From contig CALDDM010000008.1 in the NCBI GenBank assembly GCA_937936355.1, positions 19,454 through 83,453 of the forward strand: DNA of 64,000 nucleotides, written 5' to 3'. The notes under the pieces were generated by a model that was given only the letters and a program-made list of their open reading frames with translations, was not told the origin of the DNA and ran no database searches. The position numbers were made by a program, and so were the translations under genes. Positions 149-62,666 of this stretch are shown piece after piece. Source of the stretch: Minisyncoccota bacterium (GTDB taxonomy: Bacteria > Patescibacteriota > Minisyncoccia > Moranbacterales > GCA-2747515). Every line of letters starts with the position of its first letter. Within the stretch, counting starts at the first letter, position 1.

Positions 149-458
149 GTATTTGCCACTGATACTTGTTTCATATGATTTAATCATCTTCACAAAACCC
201 TCATTTAGCAAAACAAAAATCGCCCCTCAAAGCGACTCTTGTGATGTATTTTTCTAAGCCAGACAGTGTACTGCGTTCGATCTGGATCATTGATGGTTAT
301 TGTATTCAATCTATCAGTTCCATAATTATAGTGTGAACATGCCATTCTTGTAAATAACCTTCTCAGAACCATCCTCAAGGTGTGCTGTTACAGTTCTGTC
401 GGTCGTAGAAATGATATCTGTATGTACACTCGACTCATTAAATCCAAGCTTTTTCAAA

Positions 459-1990: not shown

Positions 1991-3409
1991 TTATTTCACT
2001 AACTCCTTACGTAAATAATCCTTCAAATCATCTATAGCGATACGTTGTTGGTGCATTGTGTCACGATCTCGCACAGTCACTGTACCATCCTCAAGCGTCT
2101 CAAAGTCAATGGTTATACAGTAAGGTGTGCCAATCTCATCCTGTCTTCTGTATCTTTTACCCACATTTCCGTTATCATCAAACTCACACATGTAAGACTC
2201 TGAGAGCTCTGCAAAAACCTCTTTTGCCTTAGTGACAAGTTCTGACTTATTTTTCATCAGTGGAAAAACAGCAACCTTTACTGGTGCCAATTTCTTAGGC
2301 AACTTCAACACTGTACGCACATCCTCAGACTTTTCACCATTATTATCCTCCTTTTCAAAAGTTTCCACCGTATAAGAATCAGCAAGAACTGCGAGGAATG
2401 TACGATCCACACCAACCGATGTCTCAACGACATGCGGCACAAAAACCTCATTTGTCTGTGGATTCCTATACTCAAGCTTTGTGCCAGAATGTTTTGCATG
2501 TGTTGAGAGATCATAATCCCCACGATTATGAATACCTTCAAGCTCCTTAAAGCCAAATGGGAATTTATATTCTATATCCCATGCAGCCTTTGCGTAGAAC
2601 ACTAGGTTTTCATGTTCATGCCACTGCAGATTTTCTTCTTTGATCTCTAGAATATTTACATAGAAATTCCACCTTTTCTCACGCCAAGACTCATACAAGT
2701 CTGCGGCATTGTCTGGGTGAACAAAGTACTGCATCTCCATTTGCTCAAATTCTCTTTTACGAAAGATGAACTGTCGCGCTGTAATCTCATTGCGAAATGC
2801 TTTTCCAATCTGTGCGATGCCAAACGGCACCTTCACACGTGCAGTATCAAGGACATTCTTAAAGTTGATATAAATTCCTTGACATGTCTCACCGCGCAAA
2901 TAGACAGGTGTATCCATTTTACCTGTAAAATCACCAAGATTTGACTGCACCAAAAGATTAAAACTCTTTGCAGATGAAAAATCTTTCTGACCACATTTCG
3001 GACAAACAACCTTACCTGCATTTTGTATAAGTAGTTCATTGATTTCATCATCAGACATTTTCTCATCTGCAAAAACACCAACTTCCTCCAGTAGATGGTC
3101 GACACGAGATCGTGTCTGACACTTTTTACACTCAGCAAGCGGATCGCTAAATCCACTCACATGCCCACTTGCCTCCCACACCTTAGGAGACATAAAGATA
3201 CTGCTATCAATACCAACTATGTCAGGATTTTTCTGAACCATTTCTCGCCACCACAACGCCCTGATATTTTTTGCAAGCTCTACACCATACGTTCCATAGT
3301 CATAAACCGCTGCAAATCCTCCATAAATCTCACTAGACGGAAAGATAAACCCACGTCTTTTGGTAAAAGCAACCAATTCCTCCATCGTCAATTCTTTTTT
3401 TTCTGCCAT
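1991..3409 (-). CDS. glyQS: glycine--tRNA ligase (dimeric alpha2 type)
   Basis: 472-aa ORF with N-terminus KRRGFIFPSSEIYGGFAAVYDYG and overall class II GlyRS layout. It is preceded by a T-box leader. Confidence 0.95.
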   Translation of the reverse strand: MAEKKELTMEELVAFTKRRGFIFPSSEIYGGFAAVYDYGTYGVELAKNIRALWWREMVQKNPDIVGIDSSIFMSPKVWEASGHVSGFSDPLAECKKCQTRSRVDHLLEEVGVFADEKMSDDEINELLIQNAGKVVCPKCGQKDFSSAKSFNLLVQSNLGDFTGKMDTPVYLRGETCQGIYINFKNVLDTARVKVPFGIAQIGKAFRNEITARQFIFRKREFEQMEMQYFVHPDNAADLYESWREKRWNFYVNILEIKEENLQWHEHENLVFYAKAAWDIEYKFPFGFKELEGIHNRGDYDLSTHAKHSGTKLEYRNPQTNEVFVPHVVETSVGVDRTFLAVLADSYTVETFEKEDNNGEKSEDVRTVLKLPKKLAPVKVAVFPLMKNKSELVTKAKEVFAELSESYMCEFDDNGNVGKRYRRQDEIGTPYCITIDFETLEDGTVTVRDRDTMHQQRIAIDDLKDYLRKELVK

Positions 3410-3434: not shown

Positions 3435-3656
3435 AAAAACTCGTCCTCACAAATTCAAAACTTTGAATTTGTCAGGACGAGTCTCACAACCCGCGGTTCC
3501 ACCTGACTACCCAACCTCTATTCTACCTTCAGAGATCAAGCGCTCAATTGATATTTTTAGCCCCAAAGCACGTTCCACGGTGCGCTACACAACTACTATA
3601 CCAGAAATCTTTCCTGCAGGTCAAAATCACCAAACCAAAGCAGGCTAATCAATATC
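3435..3656 (-). promoter_or_regulatory. T-box riboswitch leader of glyQS (Stem I, T-box sequence, terminator/antiterminator)
   Basis: All elements are on the minus strand. The T-box core CAGGUGGAACCGCGG lies at 3491-3505. A terminator, ACUCGUCCUGACAAAUUCAAA / UUUGAAUUUGUGAGGACGAGU followed by UUUUU, spans 3435-3482. GUCAGG (3501-3506) can alternatively pair with CCUGAC (3471-3476) in the terminator 5' arm, giving an antiterminator. The base of Stem I is GAUAUU-GA-UUAGCC / GGCUAA-A-AAUAUC. Confidence 0.8.
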
Positions 3657-3687: not shown

Positions 3688-4443
3688 TCACTCTTTACGC
3701 ATGCCGATAACAGCGAGCATAGCATCATGTGAGTCGCCTTGATGACGTCGAGCACTAAAGAACCTCTCGTCTGCATATGTGCACTCCCTACAGTTTTGCA
3801 CATTATCAAGTGGCACACCAGCCTCTGTAATCTGATCACCGAGAATTGCCTGCAAATCAACGGTAATCTTATCAAGAGTTGATCCCTTATCAATATACTT
3901 ATCCTGGGAGTACGGTCCGAACTCCTTGATCATTTCACTATAATGAAATTCAAAATTTGCTTGCGATATCCCAGGTCCAAACTCAATATGGATATCCGCA
4001 AATTTTGACCCTTGCGCAACCATAGCCTCAATAGTCCTAGGAATAATCTCCTTAACTGTACCACGCCAACCAGCGTGCGCGACACCGCAAACACCGGCAA
4101 CGGAGTCAAAAAAATACACAGGAAAACAATCAGCAACTGTTATCCCCACAAAAACACCCGGCTCTTTCGTGATCAGTGCATCAAATGCCCGGTGAAGAGG
4201 CTCGTCCTCTGATGTAATCACGGCCACAGAGGTCCCATGCGTTACATATCCATAATAAAAATCATTATAATCCACTCCTATGCTCTGAAGAAAATTTTTA
4301 TGATTCTCTTTTGTTTGCACATCCTCATCCGTATCGCGCAACTTCATATTGCCTGCACCAACGAGAGATAGTGCACCAATCACTTCAGAATTCTGAGGAA
4401 AAATTTTAAGCGACGTTAGTTGTTCTGCTGCTTGTAATGTCAT
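3688..4443 (-). CDS. pgeF: peptidoglycan editing factor PgeF (YfiH/DUF152, laccase-domain protein)
   Basis: 251-aa ORF containing TVADCFPVYFFD and GVAHAGWRGT motifs characteristic of the YfiH/PgeF family. Confidence 0.85.
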   Translation of the reverse strand: MTLQAAEQLTSLKIFPQNSEVIGALSLVGAGNMKLRDTDEDVQTKENHKNFLQSIGVDYNDFYYGYVTHGTSVAVITSEDEPLHRAFDALITKEPGVFVGITVADCFPVYFFDSVAGVCGVAHAGWRGTVKEIIPRTIEAMVAQGSKFADIHIEFGPGISQANFEFHYSEMIKEFGPYSQDKYIDKGSTLDKITVDLQAILGDQITEAGVPLDNVQNCRECTYADERFFSARRHQGDSHDAMLAVIGMRKE

Positions 4444-13731: not shown

Positions 13732-14367
13732 CTACTTCCCTATAAAATCTCTTACTGCCAATAAACTTGATACGACAACATCACAATTTATATCCACCAC
13801 AACTGATCGACGTGATTCATGGTGCTGCAATAAAATCGTTGTAATAGGCAAATTCTGTTCTTTAAGGCTCGCAAAGCTTGAAGGCTTATCATCGATGAAA
13901 TAGTACGGCTGCCCATACTGTTGACTTGATACGATCTTCTGCAAAGCAAATCCCTTATCACGCTGTACTATAAAAACATCTGCAAAATACTTCGCCACAC
14001 CAGAATAATCTATCTTTTGCTGCTGATATATAGCATCACCAAATGTGAGAAGTATCTTATCATGATCTGCAAATGCGTCAAGAAATGCGATGGCATCTCC
14101 AAAAAGCATATCACACTCCCCAGAAAACAGCTGATCTAAATCTGCACGCAAATACTCACCATCACAATAATGCAGATCAGCGGCAATCTGTGCATAATTT
14201 TCATTGCTAACCAGCAAATCAGTCTGCACGCCCCTAAACGATAATCTTCCACATACCTCACGCCACTGCTCTGGCGTTATACCAAGGCGTTGTGCACACT
14301 GCAACTGTGCCTTTTGCAATATGCCACTATTAAAGAGCGTATAGTCAAAGTCACAGATAATAGTCAT
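13732..14367 (-). CDS. HAD superfamily hydrolase
   Basis: 211-aa ORF with N-terminal motif I (ICDFDYTLF) and a C-terminal YFIDDK motif. Confidence 0.75.
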   Translation of the reverse strand: MTIICDFDYTLFNSGILQKAQLQCAQRLGITPEQWREVCGRLSFRGVQTDLLVSNENYAQIAADLHYCDGEYLRADLDQLFSGECDMLFGDAIAFLDAFADHDKILLTFGDAIYQQQKIDYSGVAKYFADVFIVQRDKGFALQKIVSSQQYGQPYYFIDDKPSSFASLKEQNLPITTILLQHHESRRSVVVDINCDVVVSSLLAVRDFIGK

Positions 14368-14383
14368 GATCTCATGTTATTAT

Positions 14384-14498
14384 GATTTACGCACTCGAGG
14401 GCAGCTCAGAGTAAAGCCGAGACTTTTCACGAGCCGATTCCCTGTGGTGAGTGAAAAATGTAGTCTTTAACAACGAAATATGCCGTGTGCGTAAATTC
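14384..14498. other. about 115-nt element closed by a 10-11 bp inverted repeat (structured RNA or MITE-like candidate)
   Basis: GATTTACGCAC (14384-14394) is complementary to GTGCGTAAATT (14487-14497). The element lies in the yvcK-HAD spacer. Internal helices can be drawn on the minus strand, e.g. AGGG..GGCUC / GAGCU..CCCU. Confidence 0.4.
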
Positions 14499-14524: not shown

Positions 14525-15553
14525 CTAGACTATATCAAACGGATCACTCCCACCATAATCTATGAGGTACGCAACTGCAGCGCCAAGTTTCGCGCTATCA
14601 TGTCGTATAAAAGCGCGTGTTGCAGCCAAAGCATCTCCCTTTGAGAGATCATGTTTTTGCCTGCTGAGAAAATCACCAGCAAGAATACGATATGACCGTT
14701 CTTGTGCCATCTCTTGTTCATGCGGTATAACCAAAGAACCTTTGCCCTCAGCTGATTCATATTTTTCCAAAACACTCTCCTCTGGTGACATTGTATTGGC
14801 TATAACATAGTCCAACCGCCCCTCTCCAATATGCACTTCTAGCGATCGCACATAATTCCCTACACCAAATCCATCTGAATGCCCATGCTTGTTTGTCAGC
14901 GGTGATACCAAGATGCAAATGGCAGATGATGCCGCTATCGCATGAGCCACACCATCCACAAGAAGGTTTGGCGTGATACTGCCATAAAGATCTCCTGGAC
15001 CAATAATAATGTGATCAGCATCTTCGATAGCATGAATCGTTTCCTCATGCGCTTGGACAGAATCTGCAAGTGTAACATGATCAATCCCTATATCCCTCAC
15101 ATGAGGATGATCATCCAAATGTGTTTCGCCTTGAAGCACCGAACCATCACGCAAATGGATATTAAGTCGCATATCACCCTCACTAGATGGTAAAACACGT
15201 CCACGTACACGCAATATCCGAGCAGCTTCGTGCATCCCCTGTGAAAAACTACCATTCACCTTTTCTAAAGCACTGATCAGTAGATTGCCCATACTATGAC
15301 CCTTAAGCCCACCGTCTTCAAAACGGTAATTCATGAGTGTGCGTAACATGTTTGGCGCATCACTAAGTGCCACAAGACATTTCATCGCATCCCCTGGCGG
15401 CAACACTCCCAACTCATCTCGCAATCTCCCTGTCGATCCACCATTGTCAGCCATTGTAACAACTGCTGTAATATCATAAGGATAGTCTTTTAGACCTGAG
15501 AGAAGTGGTACCTGTCCCGTTCCGCCACCAATTGTAACAATCTTCTTTTTCAT
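14525..15553 (-). CDS. yvcK: YvcK/CofD-family gluconeogenesis-morphogenesis factor
   Basis: The start MKKKIVTIGGGTGQVPLLSGLK (ATG at 15553) matches the YvcK N-terminus. The 27 extra codons in the ORF track would overlap the upstream gene. Confidence 0.85.
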   Translation of the reverse strand: MKKKIVTIGGGTGQVPLLSGLKDYPYDITAVVTMADNGGSTGRLRDELGVLPPGDAMKCLVALSDAPNMLRTLMNYRFEDGGLKGHSMGNLLISALEKVNGSFSQGMHEAARILRVRGRVLPSSEGDMRLNIHLRDGSVLQGETHLDDHPHVRDIGIDHVTLADSVQAHEETIHAIEDADHIIIGPGDLYGSITPNLLVDGVAHAIAASSAICILVSPLTNKHGHSDGFGVGNYVRSLEVHIGEGRLDYVIANTMSPEESVLEKYESAEGKGSLVIPHEQEMAQERSYRILAGDFLSRQKHDLSKGDALAATRAFIRHDSAKLGAAVAYLIDYGGSDPFDIV

Positions 15554-15575
15554 GTAATTATATTCATTTCTCACC

Positions 15576-16289
15576 CTACAATACCAAAGCCTTCTGATCA
15601 TCAATAAAGTCATCGATAACCTCCTGCGCTGCATCTAATTGATCTACATCACCGATTGGAAACCACATATCAGTATGAACAACCTGCACCACAATCTCAG
15701 GATGAGCGGCAACAAGGGTCTGCGGTAAACCAAACTCATCACTACCTGGAGACTTCGCCACCGGCGGAAAATTAAAATATTCACTATCAAGAACGAATGT
15801 TCCCGTGCTTACAGGCCCCTCTGCATATGCATGAGGTTTTTCGATAATAGCACGGAGCGATCCATCGTCATAGGTTTCTACATAACCAAATTCTTGTGCC
15901 TGCTTCGTATGATATGCAAGCACAGCATACTCATGTTGCAACATCTGAGCAAGATCGTCCTTACGATAAAGGTCATCTCCATTCAAGACAAGAAATCGCT
16001 GACCATCAAGAAGCGGTGCGGCTTGCCGCAGGGCATGCTCGGTGCCGTGCAAGTCTATTTGCTCGACATATGTTATTGCGCGACCCTCATACACATCACC
16101 AAAATATGCACGTATGCGTTCTTGCAAGTATCCAACAACAAGCACAACCTCATCGACAGCTTCTGGCAGCGTCTCGATTGTATAAGCAAGTTTTGGCCGA
16201 CCTTTTATCGGCAACATCGGCTTAGGGCAATCAGCACACAAATCCCCCATCCTTGTACCTCTGCCAGCCGCTAAGATTACGCACTTCAT
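15576..16289 (-). CDS. sugar-phosphate nucleotidyltransferase
   Basis: 237-aa ORF with the N-terminal NTP-transferase signature MKCVILAAGRGTRMG. Confidence 0.8.
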   Translation of the reverse strand: MKCVILAAGRGTRMGDLCADCPKPMLPIKGRPKLAYTIETLPEAVDEVVLVVGYLQERIRAYFGDVYEGRAITYVEQIDLHGTEHALRQAAPLLDGQRFLVLNGDDLYRKDDLAQMLQHEYAVLAYHTKQAQEFGYVETYDDGSLRAIIEKPHAYAEGPVSTGTFVLDSEYFNFPPVAKSPGSDEFGLPQTLVAAHPEIVVQVVHTDMWFPIGDVDQLDAAQEVIDDFIDDQKALVL

Positions 16290-19767: not shown

Positions 19768-20157
19768 CTACGATTTTCTCACAGGTAGCAGCTTCTTCTT
19801 ATATGCAGCGATACGCTTATAAAAGCCAACAGAATCCCACCACATAAGGAAGGAAGAATTTTTTTCGCATTCTGCTTGCTCATAATCATTGTGTGCACCA
19901 TCCGTGTCAGCACTTTCTTTCAGTTCATTTCCCACATCTTGTTGCGCCCTATCCAGAGACATTACATGCTCCGTATGCATCTTTGCAAGCGCTGTAAACA
20001 GCGTCGACTCTGGAAAGCGGACATAATCATTCAAGTCTATGACCCGTCGATACTCAGACTCACAATCAAGATCTAACTTAAATCGGAAAAGCATCGCATT
20101 GAGCTGATGTAAACCAGGCTCAAAAGCGTGAACCGACCGATGTATATTTTTTTTCAT
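19768..20157 (-). CDS. hypothetical protein
   Basis: 129 aa counted from the ATG at 20157 (MKKNIHRSVH...); the ORF track begins 13 codons earlier. It has its own terminator. Confidence 0.55.
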   Translation of the reverse strand: MKKNIHRSVHAFEPGLHQLNAMLFRFKLDLDCESEYRRVIDLNDYVRFPESTLFTALAKMHTEHVMSLDRAQQDVGNELKESADTDGAHNDYEQAECEKNSSFLMWWDSVGFYKRIAAYKKKLLPVRKS

Positions 20158-20240
20158 ATTAAACCACCTATTTTGGAGGTGAAAAGATAATAACAAATAA
20201 ATTAATATTTGTCAAACAATCACACCTTTCAATTCCCTCA

Positions 20241-30498: not shown

Positions 30499-31035
30499 TC
30501 AGCACTCAGTCTGGCGTATAGTACGACCAGCCATCGGTAACCACTTACTATTTTGGTAAACAGTAAAGGTACTCTCACCCCCTGGCACACCAAGACAAAG
30601 CATCCGATATTTTTTTGCCAGATCATTAAGTGGATGGTGCTCAGAAAAGCTCACACTCCCATAAATCAAATGGCACTCATATGGATTTTGTCTGTTATAT
30701 CGATCTCCAAATTGCACATACACTGCAATATTCTTGGCGGTTTCAAATCGAGAAATATTTGACCACTCCGGCGTAGTCCAGCCTGCCATACGCATTTTTC
30801 CACTTGGCTTTTTCACTGGATGGCGATCAAGAAATGGCCGGGATAGTCCTGGACACGCACCTTTCTTGACGAGATGCATTCCCGACTCAGGCACTGCCCG
30901 CACAGGACTCCTTTCATATAAATCATCAGCTACCGCAGGTGGCGGTACCAGCACCACATGATCAACTGCACATCCCGACAAAAAAACCACTGCCATAACC
31001 AAGCCGCACATGATATCTCTTATACGATTTTTCAT
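30499..31035 (-). CDS. orphan lipoprotein
   Basis: 178-aa ORF with a signal peptide and lipobox (VVFLSGC|AVD). GGGGAG lies 5 nt upstream of the ATG, and the gene has its own terminator. I recognised no family motif. Confidence 0.75.
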   Translation of the reverse strand: MKNRIRDIMCGLVMAVVFLSGCAVDHVVLVPPPAVADDLYERSPVRAVPESGMHLVKKGACPGLSRPFLDRHPVKKPSGKMRMAGWTTPEWSNISRFETAKNIAVYVQFGDRYNRQNPYECHLIYGSVSFSEHHPLNDLAKKYRMLCLGVPGGESTFTVYQNSKWLPMAGRTIRQTEC

Positions 31036-31270: not shown

Positions 31271-31894
31271 TCAACTCCTTCTGGGACAAGATAAAAGGTA
31301 AGCAAATGTCCCGCCACCGTCAGATGGATTCTTGAAATAATCTCGTTGCCACAGAAGAACCTTCGGCCCGCTCCATGCCTGGTACTCAGCTCGAGTGACG
31401 CCAGTGTACTCAACATTTGCCACACTTTCATGGACATCCGGGCAGATAAATTCCAAAGTCTTTATCTGGTCGTCAGCATACCCATCTGTAAAACCGGTAT
31501 TACCGGTGATCTTCAAGCAAAGACGAGAGCCATTAGGTATCTTATTGTGTTCATAGAACACAAGCGATGACTCCACCCTTTTAAGTCCCTGCGACTCAAT
31601 CGCCGTCGCATTGGACCAGATTGTTTGATAACCATCAAGCTGTGGCTCATCAGGTCGAGCGGTCCATCCATGCAGAACGCTAAACCTGTAGCGCTTTGCT
31701 TCCGGTGTAATGCCCCACTCACCGGGCAGCGTCACCGACTGAGTCACACACTCTCCAGCTACAACACTCAAGTGAGGATTATCCTCAATCGAATGGTGAA
31801 AAATATCAATGCCAGTGCGATCATGCGCGTTAGCACCAGCACTACAAAAGATAATTGATGCAACACTCACAGTCTTTAAGATTATTTTGAACAT
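31271..31894 (-). CDS. orphan secreted protein (predicted mature N-terminus His)
   Basis: 207-aa ORF. The signal peptide MFKIILKTVSVASIIFCSAGANA|HDRTG has an AXA cleavage motif. GGAGG lies 6 nt upstream of the ATG, and the gene has its own promoter and terminator. Confidence 0.8.
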   Translation of the reverse strand: MFKIILKTVSVASIIFCSAGANAHDRTGIDIFHHSIEDNPHLSVVAGECVTQSVTLPGEWGITPEAKRYRFSVLHGWTARPDEPQLDGYQTIWSNATAIESQGLKRVESSLVFYEHNKIPNGSRLCLKITGNTGFTDGYADDQIKTLEFICPDVHESVANVEYTGVTRAEYQAWSGPKVLLWQRDYFKNPSDGGGTFAYLLSCPRRS

Positions 31895-31954
31895 GACATA
31901 CCTCCACAGGTTTTGTCAGAATAAAAGAAGAACATCAGTTTTTAAACCAAATGC

Positions 31955-31983
31955 ATTCTATCACATATATTCATTATAGTCAA
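31955..31983 (-). promoter_or_regulatory. promoter TTGACT-N17-TAGAAT (with TGn extension)
   Basis: On the minus strand, the -35 hexamer is at 31978-31983 and the -10 hexamer at 31955-31960, about 55 nt upstream of the ATG at 31894. Confidence 0.5.
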
Positions 31984-32085
31984 TAGACACGCATAGAAAA
32001 AAATTACACGACTCAACCCCTGACGCACAGTCAGAACCGCCAAGAAACAATCTTTCCATAAATTGAGTGATTTAGTTTAAATTAT

Positions 32086-32113
32086 AAAAAACCGGCCACA
32101 CAGTCGTGACCGG
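32086..32113 (-). terminator. rho-independent terminator of the small-ORF operon
   Basis: On the minus strand, CCGGUCAC-GACUGU-GUGGCCGG (one mismatch) is followed by UUUUUUAUAAUUU. Confidence 0.65.
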
Positions 32114-32159
32114 ATTCTATTTCAGATTTTTTTTGCTTTTAATGCATCTAACCAGTTAC

Positions 32160-32246
32160 TCAGATATCTACTAGTGTACACTCAACACAAGAGATCGCAG
32201 TTAGAAATATGTAACCCCAAACAAAGCTATCCAAGAGATCCTTCAT
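32160..32246 (-). CDS. candidate 28-aa hydrophobic micro-ORF
   Basis: The peptide is MKDLLDSFVWGYIFLTAISCVECTLVDI. Its ATG lies 8 nt after the stop of the 60-aa ORF, with no SD. It is below the ORF-track cutoff and was translated by hand. Confidence 0.3.
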   Translation of the reverse strand: MKDLLDSFVWGYIFLTAISCVECTLVDI

Positions 32247-32254
32247 CGTTGCAA

Positions 32255-32437
32255 TTATTTCTTCCTGCCCTTTAAAACAAGAAACAACAACAGAAAAAAG
32301 CCAAATGTAACAAGCGCCAAAAAGTTTGGATCTTCTGTGATTGGCATGTGATGGTTTGCATATGCACTCGGGGCAAAAATTACTATGCCGCAGAGAGAGA
32401 AAATCCTTCCTTCTTTTTTACTTTTTATATTATTCAT
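32255..32437 (-). CDS. 60-aa two-TM membrane protein with basic termini
   Basis: The peptide reads MNNIKSKKEGR-[IFSLCGIVIFAPSAYA]-NHHMPITEDPN-[FLALVTFGFFLLLFLVL]-KGRKK. AGGA lies 4 nt upstream of the ATG. Confidence 0.55.
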   Translation of the reverse strand: MNNIKSKKEGRIFSLCGIVIFAPSAYANHHMPITEDPNFLALVTFGFFLLLFLVLKGRKK

Positions 32438-32443
32438 TGTGTC

Positions 32444-32707
32444 CTATCCAGGCGCGTAGATATTCGCTGCCTTGCAGGCAGCGATCGTACCCTGATCCCA
32501 TGACACGCCATACATGAGATAGTATGATTCTATTGCGATCGCCTCAGGCGTCAGCAGATAAATATAGCCATGTAGTGATAGAAACGCTAATCTATACATG
32601 CTATTTCCAAAAACACTACAAAACGCAGAGTACGAATGAGCAACCTCCATCCCTAGCAAATAAACGTCATGACAAATAATCTGATCGATCCTCACCGTCA
32701 TATGCAC
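32444..32707 (-). CDS. hypothetical 87-aa protein
   Basis: This is the only long ORF in any frame here. It ends 7 nt before the 60-aa ORF. I saw no SD and no recognisable motif. Confidence 0.4.
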   Translation of the reverse strand: MHMTVRIDQIICHDVYLLGMEVAHSYSAFCSVFGNSMYRLAFLSLHGYIYLLTPEAIAIESYYLMYGVSWDQGTIAACKAANIYAPG

Positions 32708-32848
32708 TCAAGCAGGCTGCGATGATGTGAATCCAGATATTTTCTTCTTTTTCACTAACCTTTACTCCGTGGATTTAAATTGTAAATATACTATTACCAT
32801 CGATCATAATCGACAGAAAGCACATTAACACAAAATTATTTTTCAGTC

Positions 32849-32880
32849 AAAAAACTAATGTGCAACACTGTGCACATTAG
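32849..32880 (-). terminator. rho-independent terminator after the 27-aa micro-ORF
   Basis: A perfect 10-bp inverted repeat CTAATGTGCA-N6-TGCACATTAG is followed on the minus strand by UUUUUU. Confidence 0.65.
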
Positions 32881-32896
32881 CTCAAAAACTACGCAA

Positions 32897-32980
32897 TCAC
32901 GACCCCGCCAAATGAAGAAAGCAGCTCGCTACAGCGAGGACCAATAGGCCCTCATTTATCAGATTGTCCAACGAAGCCAT
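32897..32980 (-). CDS. candidate 27-aa hydrophobic micro-ORF
   Basis: The peptide is MASLDNLINEGLLVLAVASCFLHLAGS. GGAG lies 12 nt upstream, and the unit has its own promoter and terminator. The transcript could instead be a non-coding sRNA. Confidence 0.35.
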   Translation of the reverse strand: MASLDNLINEGLLVLAVASCFLHLAGS

Positions 32981-33017
32981 AATACACTAACTCCAAACAG
33001 GCAAAATTGCCTCTTCA

Positions 33018-33077
33018 AATATACAAAAAATTGTCTCCAACGTAAATATTGACAGATTCTATATAATAATGTAAAAT
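33018..33077. promoter_or_regulatory. back-to-back divergent promoters
   Basis: The minus-strand promoter is TTTACG (33041-33046)-N17-TATATT (33018-33023). The plus-strand promoter is TTGACA (33049-33054)-N17-TAAAAT (33072-33077). The two -35 boxes are 2 nt apart. Confidence 0.45.
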
Positions 33078-33114
33078 AAAAAATAAATACACAAAAAGCG
33101 AGAGCAAAGTGGAA

Positions 33115-33234
33115 ATGTCAGTATATGATAATCAGGGGCGTGGCAAAAACCCACGTCAATCATCCATTAGAGAAATTATCATCGTCACACTAACTATAAT
33201 TGCGTGGGCAGCAGTGATCTCGCAAATAACCTGA
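33115..33234 (+). CDS. candidate 39-aa single-TM micro-protein
   Basis: The peptide is MSVYDNQGRGKNPRQSSIREIIIVTLTIIAWAAVISQIT. It has a promoter upstream and a perfect hairpin 10 nt downstream. It was translated by hand. Confidence 0.4.
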   Translation: MSVYDNQGRGKNPRQSSIREIIIVTLTIIAWAAVISQIT

Positions 33235-33243
33235 GGTTTAACA

Positions 33244-33268
33244 GGCCACGATCCATTAGATCGTGGCC
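33244..33268 (+). terminator. hairpin terminator
   Basis: GGCCACGATC-CATTA-GATCGTGGCC forms a perfect 10-bp stem. The following U-tract (UUAAC) is weak. Confidence 0.5.
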
Positions 33269-33364
33269 TTAACACTTTACAAAAACCGACTAAGAGCATT
33301 AAGACAAACCACACGATTCATCACAGAAGTCACAACGATAAATACAACCAAACCAAAATCAGAT

Positions 33365-34243
33365 CTACTTTTGCAGTGAAAAGAAAGCACGTGTCGTTTT
33401 TGCAGTACTTTCGATTATTTTCTCTGCAGAGACATCTTTTAGATCCGCTATTCTGCGTGCAACATATTGCACATACCGAGGATCGTTTCGCTTACCACGG
33501 TGCGGGGCGGGCGTCAGATATGGTCCGTCTGTCTCAATCATCACACGATCGAGCGGGATCATTTTTATCACCTGACTCATCTGATCATCATCAGACTTAC
33601 TATATGTCACATTTCCCGTAAATGAGAACGTGACGTTATCCATATCAAGAAACTCCTTCGTCACTGACACATTACCCATGTAACAGTGCACAACAAACCG
33701 CACGTCAGGATAATCAGCAATGATACGCGCACAATCAACGTACGCATCACTCGCTGCCACATCTAGTGGCCTACAATGCACAACAACAGGCAATCCTATC
33801 TTTCGTGCAAGTGCAATCTGCACAACAAAACCTGTTCGTTGCCACTTTTTTTGCGCAGTACTTACAACCACTTCACCAGGGAGAAAATAATCCAAACCAA
33901 TCTCCCCAATCGCAACAACTTTTTTTTCAGTAGCCATCCCCTCTATTTCCTCAACAGATCTCTTCAAATTTTGCATACGCACATCCTCAAGACTATCCGC
34001 ACCCATACCCTCTGCCCACTCAGCGTCTCTTTTGGGGCCACCATTAAAAACATGGGGATGCATACCCACAACAGCGTAAATATTTTCATATTTCTTAGCA
34101 ACATCCAATGCCTGTTGCGATTCGCGCACGCTTGTACCTATATTGATCATCGACTCACCACCATGATCAAAAAACGCGGCAACAACATCACCACATTCAT
34201 CACCATACTTCTTATCATGCAAGTGTATATGAGCATCAATCAT
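33365..34243 (-). CDS. tatD: TatD-family metal-dependent hydrolase/DNase
   Basis: 292-aa ORF with N-terminus MIDAHIHLHD and conserved GEIGLDY, VVHCR and ETDGPYL motifs. Confidence 0.9.
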   Translation of the reverse strand: MIDAHIHLHDKKYGDECGDVVAAFFDHGGESMINIGTSVRESQQALDVAKKYENIYAVVGMHPHVFNGGPKRDAEWAEGMGADSLEDVRMQNLKRSVEEIEGMATEKKVVAIGEIGLDYFLPGEVVVSTAQKKWQRTGFVVQIALARKIGLPVVVHCRPLDVAASDAYVDCARIIADYPDVRFVVHCYMGNVSVTKEFLDMDNVTFSFTGNVTYSKSDDDQMSQVIKMIPLDRVMIETDGPYLTPAPHRGKRNDPRYVQYVARRIADLKDVSAEKIIESTAKTTRAFFSLQK

Positions 34244-62021: not shown

Positions 62022-62050
62022 ATTGACACAAAGATGTATTTATACTATAA
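62022..62050 (+). promoter_or_regulatory. perfect-consensus promoter TTGACA-N17-TATAAT
   Basis: TTGACA is at 62022-62027 and TATAAT at 62045-62050. GGAG lies 7 nt upstream of the ATG at 62079. Confidence 0.6.
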
Positions 62051-62078
62051 TGCTGACATCGTAATTTGGAGACTGCGC

Positions 62079-62423
62079 ATGCAGATCACAAGTAAAACAA
62101 CTACCTTCAAAACCGCAGTCGCGATCATAAGGGCCATCTACCCTAGTTATCGCCACGCACAAGACACACACCTTTACGCCCACCTACAAAAAATCCTCTT
62201 TAATCAACTCACCGAAAAAGAGAGATTAAAAAATGGTGTACGTCTCTACCAAGTTTCAGTAGAGGTTGCCGAGTTTCGCCAGACTGAAAAAATCGACAAA
62301 GTATACGAAATTAAAACACTCGGCGGCACAGTGATTGGCTACGTTGGCACGGTCAAGCAAGGTGTGAGAGTGATAAGAATTGTAGCCAAAAAGGCAAAGA
62401 CAAAAGGTCAGGGATCCCCCTGA
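62079..62423 (+). CDS. orphan 114-aa basic protein
   Basis: The start is MQITSKTTTF... at the ATG at 62079. The ORF-track 5' extension to 61794 is antisense to xth. A consensus promoter, an SD and a strong terminator flank the gene. Confidence 0.65.
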   Translation: MQITSKTTTFKTAVAIIRAIYPSYRHAQDTHLYAHLQKILFNQLTEKERLKNGVRLYQVSVEVAEFRQTEKIDKVYEIKTLGGTVIGYVGTVKQGVRVIRIVAKKAKTKGQGSP

Positions 62424-62436
62424 CCTTAATTTTTTA
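62406..62436 (+). terminator. rho-independent terminator
   Basis: GGTCAGGG-ATCC-CCCTGACC forms an 8-bp stem followed by TTAATTTTTT. It overlaps the stop codon. Confidence 0.75.
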
Positions 62437-62575: not shown

Positions 62576-62666
62576 TGGAGAGGTGCTAGAGTGGTTGAAT
62601 AGGACACCCTGCTAAGGTGTTAGCCCTTCACGGGGCTCGAGGGTTCGAATCCCTTCCTCTCCTCCA
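62576..62666 (+). tRNA. tRNA-Ser (anticodon GCU), class II with long variable arm, CCA encoded
   Basis: The acceptor stem is GGAGAGG/CCUCUCC. The anticodon stem ACACC/GGUGU encloses the loop CUGCUAA. The variable arm is GCCC..GGGC, and the T-arm is GAGGG-UUCGAAU-CCCUU. The 3' end is U-CCA. Confidence 0.9.

Follow-up and report, generated by a model that had tools for sequence, protein, structure and literature searches.

The largest gene-free gap in a 64,000-nucleotide stretch of bacterial DNA (the whole stretch that was analysed, referred to as the window) may hold two small and unrelated units: an orphan gene for a 39-aa membrane peptide on the plus strand, and a short RNA that ends at a terminator on the minus strand. 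A probability of roughly 45% is given to this reading of the locus as a whole. The plus unit, taken alone, is probably a real micro-gene for a tail-anchored membrane peptide, because its promoter is credible, its leader has a length that is typical of this genome and its transmembrane segment is non-random. Counted against it were the orphan status of the ORF, its intermediate codon score, an ORF length at chance level and a non-canonical hairpin at the 3' side.

The window has a G+C content of ~42% with a strong and constant GC skew, and 54 of its 58 confident ORFs lie on the minus strand of what is a compact genome segment. The study region of 657 nt, in which an earlier note had found no annotated ORF, indeed sits in the longest stretch of the window that is devoid of genes, a gap of 1470 nt (31895-33364). 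All motifs that the note had listed for the two units were recovered at their positions (Table 1). Named relatives of the TatD protein encoded next to the gap come from 'Candidatus Moranbacteria' and Patescibacteria and share ~46% identity with it at most. The closest relative overall reaches 70%, and none closer than this was present among 5.8 billion protein clusters. Judged from these sequence matches, the host is an uncultivated CPR-like (Patescibacteria-like) bacterium without a close relative. A second assembly (L001) stems from the same strain and is 100% identical across the gap, so that it offers no usable population variation. Shine-Dalgarno-like sequences are rare in front of the 58 confident ORFs, 16% of which reach -4 kcal/mol compared with 10% of random positions. 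Because the genome barely uses such sequences, they cannot discriminate between ORFs here. In several ORFs of the window a -10-like box was seen very near the start codon, a possible sign of short leaders or of mRNAs without a leader.

Table 1. Features of the gap, of the genes that flank it and of the secreted-protein family. Positions refer to the window unless a related locus is named.
Feature	Position	Strand	Remarks
TatD gene	33365-34243	minus	right flank of the 1470-nt gap
Perfect 11-bp GC-rich hairpin AGGCCACGATC/GATCGTGGCCT	33243..33269	none	~-20 kcal/mol; lies where the 39-aa ORF and TatD converge
39-aa ORF MSVYDNQGRGKNPRQSSIREIIIVTLTIIAWAAVISQIT	33115-33234	plus	41 aa if GTG 33109 is the start
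Sigma-70-type promoter TTGACA-N17-TAAAAT	33049..33077	plus	11/12 match; predicted transcription start ~33084
Promoter-like TTTACG-N17-TATATT	33018..33046	minus	9/12 match, chance level
Palindrome AGGCAAAATTGCCT (AGGCAAUUUUGCCU)	33000-33013	minus	5-bp stem, 4-nt loop; predicted 5' end of the minus RNA
27-aa ORF MASLDNLINEGLLVLAVASCFLHLAGS	32897-32980	minus	coding status doubtful
Canonical intrinsic terminator	32849..32880 (hairpin 32855-32880)	minus	perfect 10-bp stem, 6-nt loop, T6
207-aa secreted-protein ORF	31271-31894	minus	left flank of the 1470-nt gap
Secreted-protein family, window members	30499-31035, 31271-31894	minus	
Secreted-protein family, locus L002	6943-7473		
Secreted-protein family, locus L006	6269-6889		
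Secreted-protein family, locus L005	8008-8556		

The promoter of the plus unit is statistically credible. Sites that match the consensus at 11 or more of the 12 positions were observed six times in the window, versus 1.9 +/- 1.4 times in shuffles (an about three-fold enrichment), and the probability of finding at least one such site within the 657-nt region by chance is P = 0.023. Five of the six are intergenic and the sixth coincides with the start listed for ORF 19768-20196; by our reading of the sequence an ORF starts ~20-40 nt downstream of each of them. One of the six, a complete 12/12 promoter (62023-62051, plus), was seen upstream of an uncharacterised ORF of ~114 aa (plus, ATG at 62080), which is followed by a canonical terminator (62404-62427 + T6) just upstream of tRNA-Ser (62577-62666). 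The arrangement in the gap had been described as back-to-back promoters. The two -35 hexamers do lie 2 nt apart, but the minus-strand site is of a quality that is expected by chance, since sites of at least 9/12 number 154 in the window as compared with 147 in shuffles.

The N-terminal half of the 39-aa peptide is basic and polar, and a predicted transmembrane helix extends to its C-terminus. The best 18-residue window has a Kyte-Doolittle value of 2.36. Neither the 217 spurious ORFs of the plus strand, which is A-rich, nor 5000 nucleotide shuffles contained a single case that reached it. This hydrophobic stretch is the only strong coding-type signal of the ORF. Length is uninformative, as 75% of the shuffles of the region hold an ATG-initiated ORF of at least 39 aa. 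The codon-usage log-odds of the 27-aa and 39-aa ORFs are both ~-0.07, in between the means of spurious ORFs (-0.32) and of fragments of real genes (+0.31); these intermediate scores fall in the lowest 4% of the real-gene fragments and in the top 13% of the spurious ORFs. An exhaustive phmmer search with the 41-aa version of the ORF against 1.84 billion representatives gave no true homologue, the sole match being a spurious 615-aa repeat protein. A promoter, a start codon, an open frame, a transmembrane helix and a stop codon, which together would mark the gene of a small membrane protein, were found within one short unit on the plus strand only. An exact 10-nt direct repeat (ATCCATTAGA) was observed at 33162-33171 inside the 39-aa ORF and at 33251-33260 in the loop region of the 11-bp hairpin; its chance expectation is a few percent by rough estimate.

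The two hairpins of the locus differ in kind. The one behind the 39-aa ORF, reported as a perfect stem of 10 bp, is perfect but is 11 bp long. It lies 8 nt behind the stop codon and lacks a T-tract on both strands. With d = -28 and -25 on the two strands according to d'Aubenton-Carafa, it does not score as a canonical intrinsic terminator. For this reason we infer for it a possible role as 3' end, as stabiliser or as barrier to transcription. The perfect 10-bp hairpin followed by U6 that had been noted behind the 27-aa ORF was confirmed as a canonical terminator, its d of +19 falling within the range of the terminators that follow real genes of the window (+10 to +28). Its stem comprises 13 bp when the G-U/A-U extension is counted. 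The window contains 11 perfect hairpins of at least 9 bp versus 1.3 expected, an enrichment of about nine-fold, and three of the 11 are located in the 1470-nt gap. Scans of JGI metagenomes and GTDB genomes for the hairpin patterns returned only chance palindromes from unrelated taxa. Elsewhere in the window, an imperfect palindrome of ~20 bp per arm (3439-3482) occupies the space between ORFs 1991-3409 and 3688-4443; it has a perfect 10-bp core stem (ACAAATTCAA/TTGAATTTGT) and flanking arms of the GACGAGT type, and lacks a T-tract.

On the minus strand the terminator is the sole solid feature, and its canonical form implies that some short or 3'-terminal RNA ends there. An independent sRNA gene would be expected to have a promoter and a terminator of its own; here the terminator is canonical (T6 included) and the promoter is the chance-level site discussed above. 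The 5-bp palindrome at the predicted 5' end is, in our judgement, too short to carry weight by itself. The 27-aa ORF has a short hydrophobic core and an ordinary hydrophobicity, as its value is attained by 19% of the spurious ORFs on the T/G-rich minus strand (28% in the case of the 28-aa ORF that had been compared with it). Its openness is its only support, and it is probably incidental. The description of the locus as two stand-alone units that are each bounded by a terminator is plausible and reasonable in outline, but it is weakened by the non-canonical hairpin of the plus unit and by the chance-level promoter of the minus unit.

The 27-aa peptide and the 28-aa peptide had been taken for members of a small paralogous family. 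In an ungapped BLOSUM62 alignment they share 6 of 27 residues with a score of 7, for which shuffling gives P = 0.023 when this comparison is considered singly. However, nine of the 643 mechanically collected small ORFs of the window are equal or better partners, most of them in wrong frames of real genes, and the pair ranks only fifth among the 153 pairs inside the gap. The pair was not reported by tblastn at E <= 50. The resemblance is no greater than the background among mechanical ORFs, and the family was dismissed. The presence of the units in several copies was not borne out either, as no further copy of either peptide or of the DNA exists within the 64-kb window. The 28-aa ORF (32160-32246) itself is the last of a tight minus-strand tandem (32092-32707), in which it is preceded by ORFs of 85/87 aa (32444-32707) and 60 aa (32255-32437) with gaps of 6 and 8 nt, and which ends in a canonical terminator (32092-32113 + T6). 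Gene finders recognise the 85-aa and the 60-aa ORF, neither of which has homologues. The 60-aa product combines an N-terminal signal peptide (...SAYA|NHH) with a C-terminal transmembrane helix and a KGRKK tail, an architecture that resembles that of a sorting signal with almost no mature domain.

Seven related loci were reached through TatD homologues with 55-70% TatD identity. The gene order LigA-GatCA-hypothetical-TatD ... atp operon is conserved in them, whereas the interval between TatD and atpB is different in every genome examined. Comparison of the 1470-nt gap with the seven loci by blastn, tblastx and tblastn revealed neither similar DNA nor similar peptides, a TatD-based search of GTDB genomes for related loci gave no match, and neither the antisense 52-aa ORF nor the neighbouring 85-aa ORF has homologues. 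As far as can be read from these comparisons, the gap is lineage-specific orphan DNA and the TatD-atpB interval a hotspot of gain and loss, with which the orphan content of the gap fits. The variable space between TatD and the atp operon is occupied by a fast-evolving family of secreted proteins, to which the 207-aa and 178-aa ORFs of the window belong as tandem paralogues. In most members the signal peptide ends in A-x-A followed by His, so that His would be the mature N-terminus; a 'DGTTACY'-like motif is common to the family, which has no Pfam match. The gap was also considered as a pseudogene remnant of this family, and the profile test was negative.

A conserved non-coding element of ~110-130 nt was noticed in the same interval of three related loci (L005 7672-7800, L006 5908-6050 and L007 1945-2075). 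In L006 and L007 it directly follows TatD, and in L005 a gene of 141 aa stands between the two. A terminator-like hairpin forms its first part and CAGCAAT...GTACACCCGTACGGTGTG...ATTGCT its second. The element is not in Rfam, and in L006 it shows an apparent compensatory change from AGCAAT/ATTGCT to AGCGAT/ATCGCT. In L005 and L007, partial copies in inverted orientation are found between atpE and atpF. As a candidate homologue of the minus unit the element was rejected, because nhmmer found it to be absent from the window. A dispersed intergenic repeat of ~50 nt (TACGyAC..GTGTGCTTTGTCGTTA...) has three copies in L006 (2339-2418, 6065-6113 and 7027-7075) and a weak match in the window, where it is located between ORFs 13732-14367 and 14525-15634 (14445-14495, minus; 74.5% over 51 nt, E = 9e-4).

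Several other explanations of the locus were weighed. Both units could be non-coding sRNAs that work through base-pairing or through binding to proteins, with the ORFs of 27 and 39 aa as incidental features. Taken in full, the two predicted transcripts have more stable folds than shuffles (z = -4.9 and -4.75), and, as described above, the codon scores are not gene-like and the ORF length is at chance level. When the terminal hairpins are left out, however, the transcript bodies reach z = -1.8 and -1.6, which indicates that the folding signal comes mainly from these hairpins. Rfam gave nothing relevant in the region, neither at the gathering threshold nor at E <= 10, and the transmembrane-like, periodic hydrophobic stretch of the plus ORF is very unlikely to have arisen by chance. 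That both units are sRNAs is rather unlikely. The sRNA alternative mentioned in the earlier note may hold, above all for the minus unit. A third short unit on the minus strand (~354 to 210) also speaks for sRNAs. It has a strong promoter (11/12; 354..325) and, ~75 nt past the predicted start, a terminator composed of a 13-pair hairpin and a U-run (242-213). The predicted RNA stops at or before the stop codon of its 29-aa ORF (201-290), and consequently the unit looks like an sRNA of ~105 nt. The existence of a third promoter-to-terminator unit in the window suggests that stand-alone small RNAs are normal for this genome. The terminator on the minus strand could also belong to TatD. The TatD operon would then read through the T-less hairpin at 33243-33269 and end at 32855-32880; the 27-aa ORF would be part of a 3' UTR of ~515 nt and the plus unit would lie antisense within that UTR, which yields a convergent cis-antisense pair. 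This is consistent with the minus promoter being just 9/12 and with the fact that no canonical terminator lies between the TatD stop codon (33365) and 32880. It is nevertheless doubtful, as a 3' UTR of 515 nt is long for a compact genome, the hairpin of -20 kcal/mol could still pause or terminate transcription, and read-through would be disturbed by transcripts that run head-on against it from a strong promoter. It is quite unlikely that the gap is non-functional debris, in which decayed lineage-specific genes in a variable hotspot have left the promoter, hairpins and ORFs behind. The variability of the TatD-atpB interval among the relatives examined, the orphan nature of the whole 1470-nt gap and the intermediate codon scores agree with such decay. 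On the other hand, tblastx and a six-frame profile search gave no sign of the secreted-protein family next to the gap or of any other protein, and perfect hairpins and an 11/12 promoter would presumably decay quickly without selection.

The locus had further been interpreted as type I toxin-antitoxin-like, with a membrane toxin of 39 or 27 aa that is repressed by an antisense or partly complementary neighbouring RNA. A small transmembrane peptide in a stand-alone intergenic unit would suit such a system, the divergent layout may, on general knowledge, recall tisB/istR-1 or zor/orz, and an antisense overlap with a TatD read-through transcript is possible. The interpretation fails, however, on complementarity, on family homology and on copy number in the 64-kb window, and it is considered extremely improbable. 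No direct repeat of at least 12 nt links the two divergent transcripts, and the duplex between the two RNAs has an energy of -82.4, which does not stand out from the shuffles (-74.1 +/- 6.1; P = 0.09). No antisense promoter was better than 9/12. Pfam and PADLOC searches with all small ORFs and neighbours gave no match, toxin and defence families included, and the locus is present as a single copy in the window. Besides, most known type I toxins carry a charged tail after the transmembrane helix, whereas the helix of the 39-aa peptide is at the extreme C-terminus and has no such tail. It is also very unlikely that the tail-anchored peptide and its neighbour form a functional pair, in which the peptide would be controlled by TatD read-through or by the 160-nt minus RNA as a type I toxin-antitoxin-like or small-regulator module that is undescribed in the CPR radiation and has no sequence relatives. 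A survey of the literature found no description of such small genes or of type I systems in this radiation.

Under the preferred reading of two unrelated units, RNA polymerase would start at the near-consensus sigma-70 promoter of the plus strand and produce an RNA of ~185 nt. A leader of ~30 nt, a length typical of this genome, would precede the coding sequence of the 39-aa peptide, which would be inserted in the membrane as a tail-anchored, N-in small protein with its positively charged half at the N-terminus. The 11-bp hairpin would form or stabilize the 3' end of the plus RNA, at the place where it would meet a converging TatD transcript. The minus transcript, which would end at the T6 terminator, could be an independent, sRNA-like RNA of ~160 nt that starts at about 33011 or the tail of the TatD mRNA.

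If this is true, the 39-aa peptide would add to the unannotated small membrane proteins and the minus RNA to the candidate sRNAs, in a streamlined uncultivated bacterium of a kind about whose small genes almost nothing is known. The practical value is modest, the locus being an orphan that is confined to one genome and the context giving no functional clue. The main useful result is a negative one, namely that neither the peptide family nor the toxin-antitoxin reading deserves to be taken further. The locus is an ordinary one: an orphan small membrane protein gene and an sRNA-like transcript are both of known kinds, and nothing in it will surprise a specialist.

Divergent, non-overlapping type I systems are exemplified by tisB/istR-1, zorO/orzO and shoB/ohsC, for which an RNA-RNA complementarity of 18-21 nt or more is defining. 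As in these systems, a small hydrophobic ORF is located in an intergenic region beside a divergent short RNA. In contrast to them, the locus has neither complementarity nor a family match, is present as a single copy in the window, and the promoter of the would-be partner RNA is at chance level. The minus unit is reminiscent of genes for trans-acting sRNAs with a Rho-independent terminator, in view of its length of ~160 nt, its putative promoter, its canonical hairpin with U6, and the internal stem-loops and C/U-rich single-stranded stretch of its predicted RNA. It differs from them in that it has no Rfam family, conservation or identified target and that its promoter is unsupported, and it may just as well be the tail of the TatD mRNA. 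For the plus unit the closest parallels are bacterial small membrane proteins of less than 50 aa, which include AcrZ, MgrB, MgtS, KdpF and CydX. The 39-aa peptide has no sequence similarity to these proteins and is an orphan without a known partner complex or support from conservation, and its helix forms the very C-terminus (tail-anchored), behind a basic segment of 22 residues. What the plus unit has in common with them is a single transmembrane helix in fewer than 50 residues, a promoter of its own and having been missed by gene callers.
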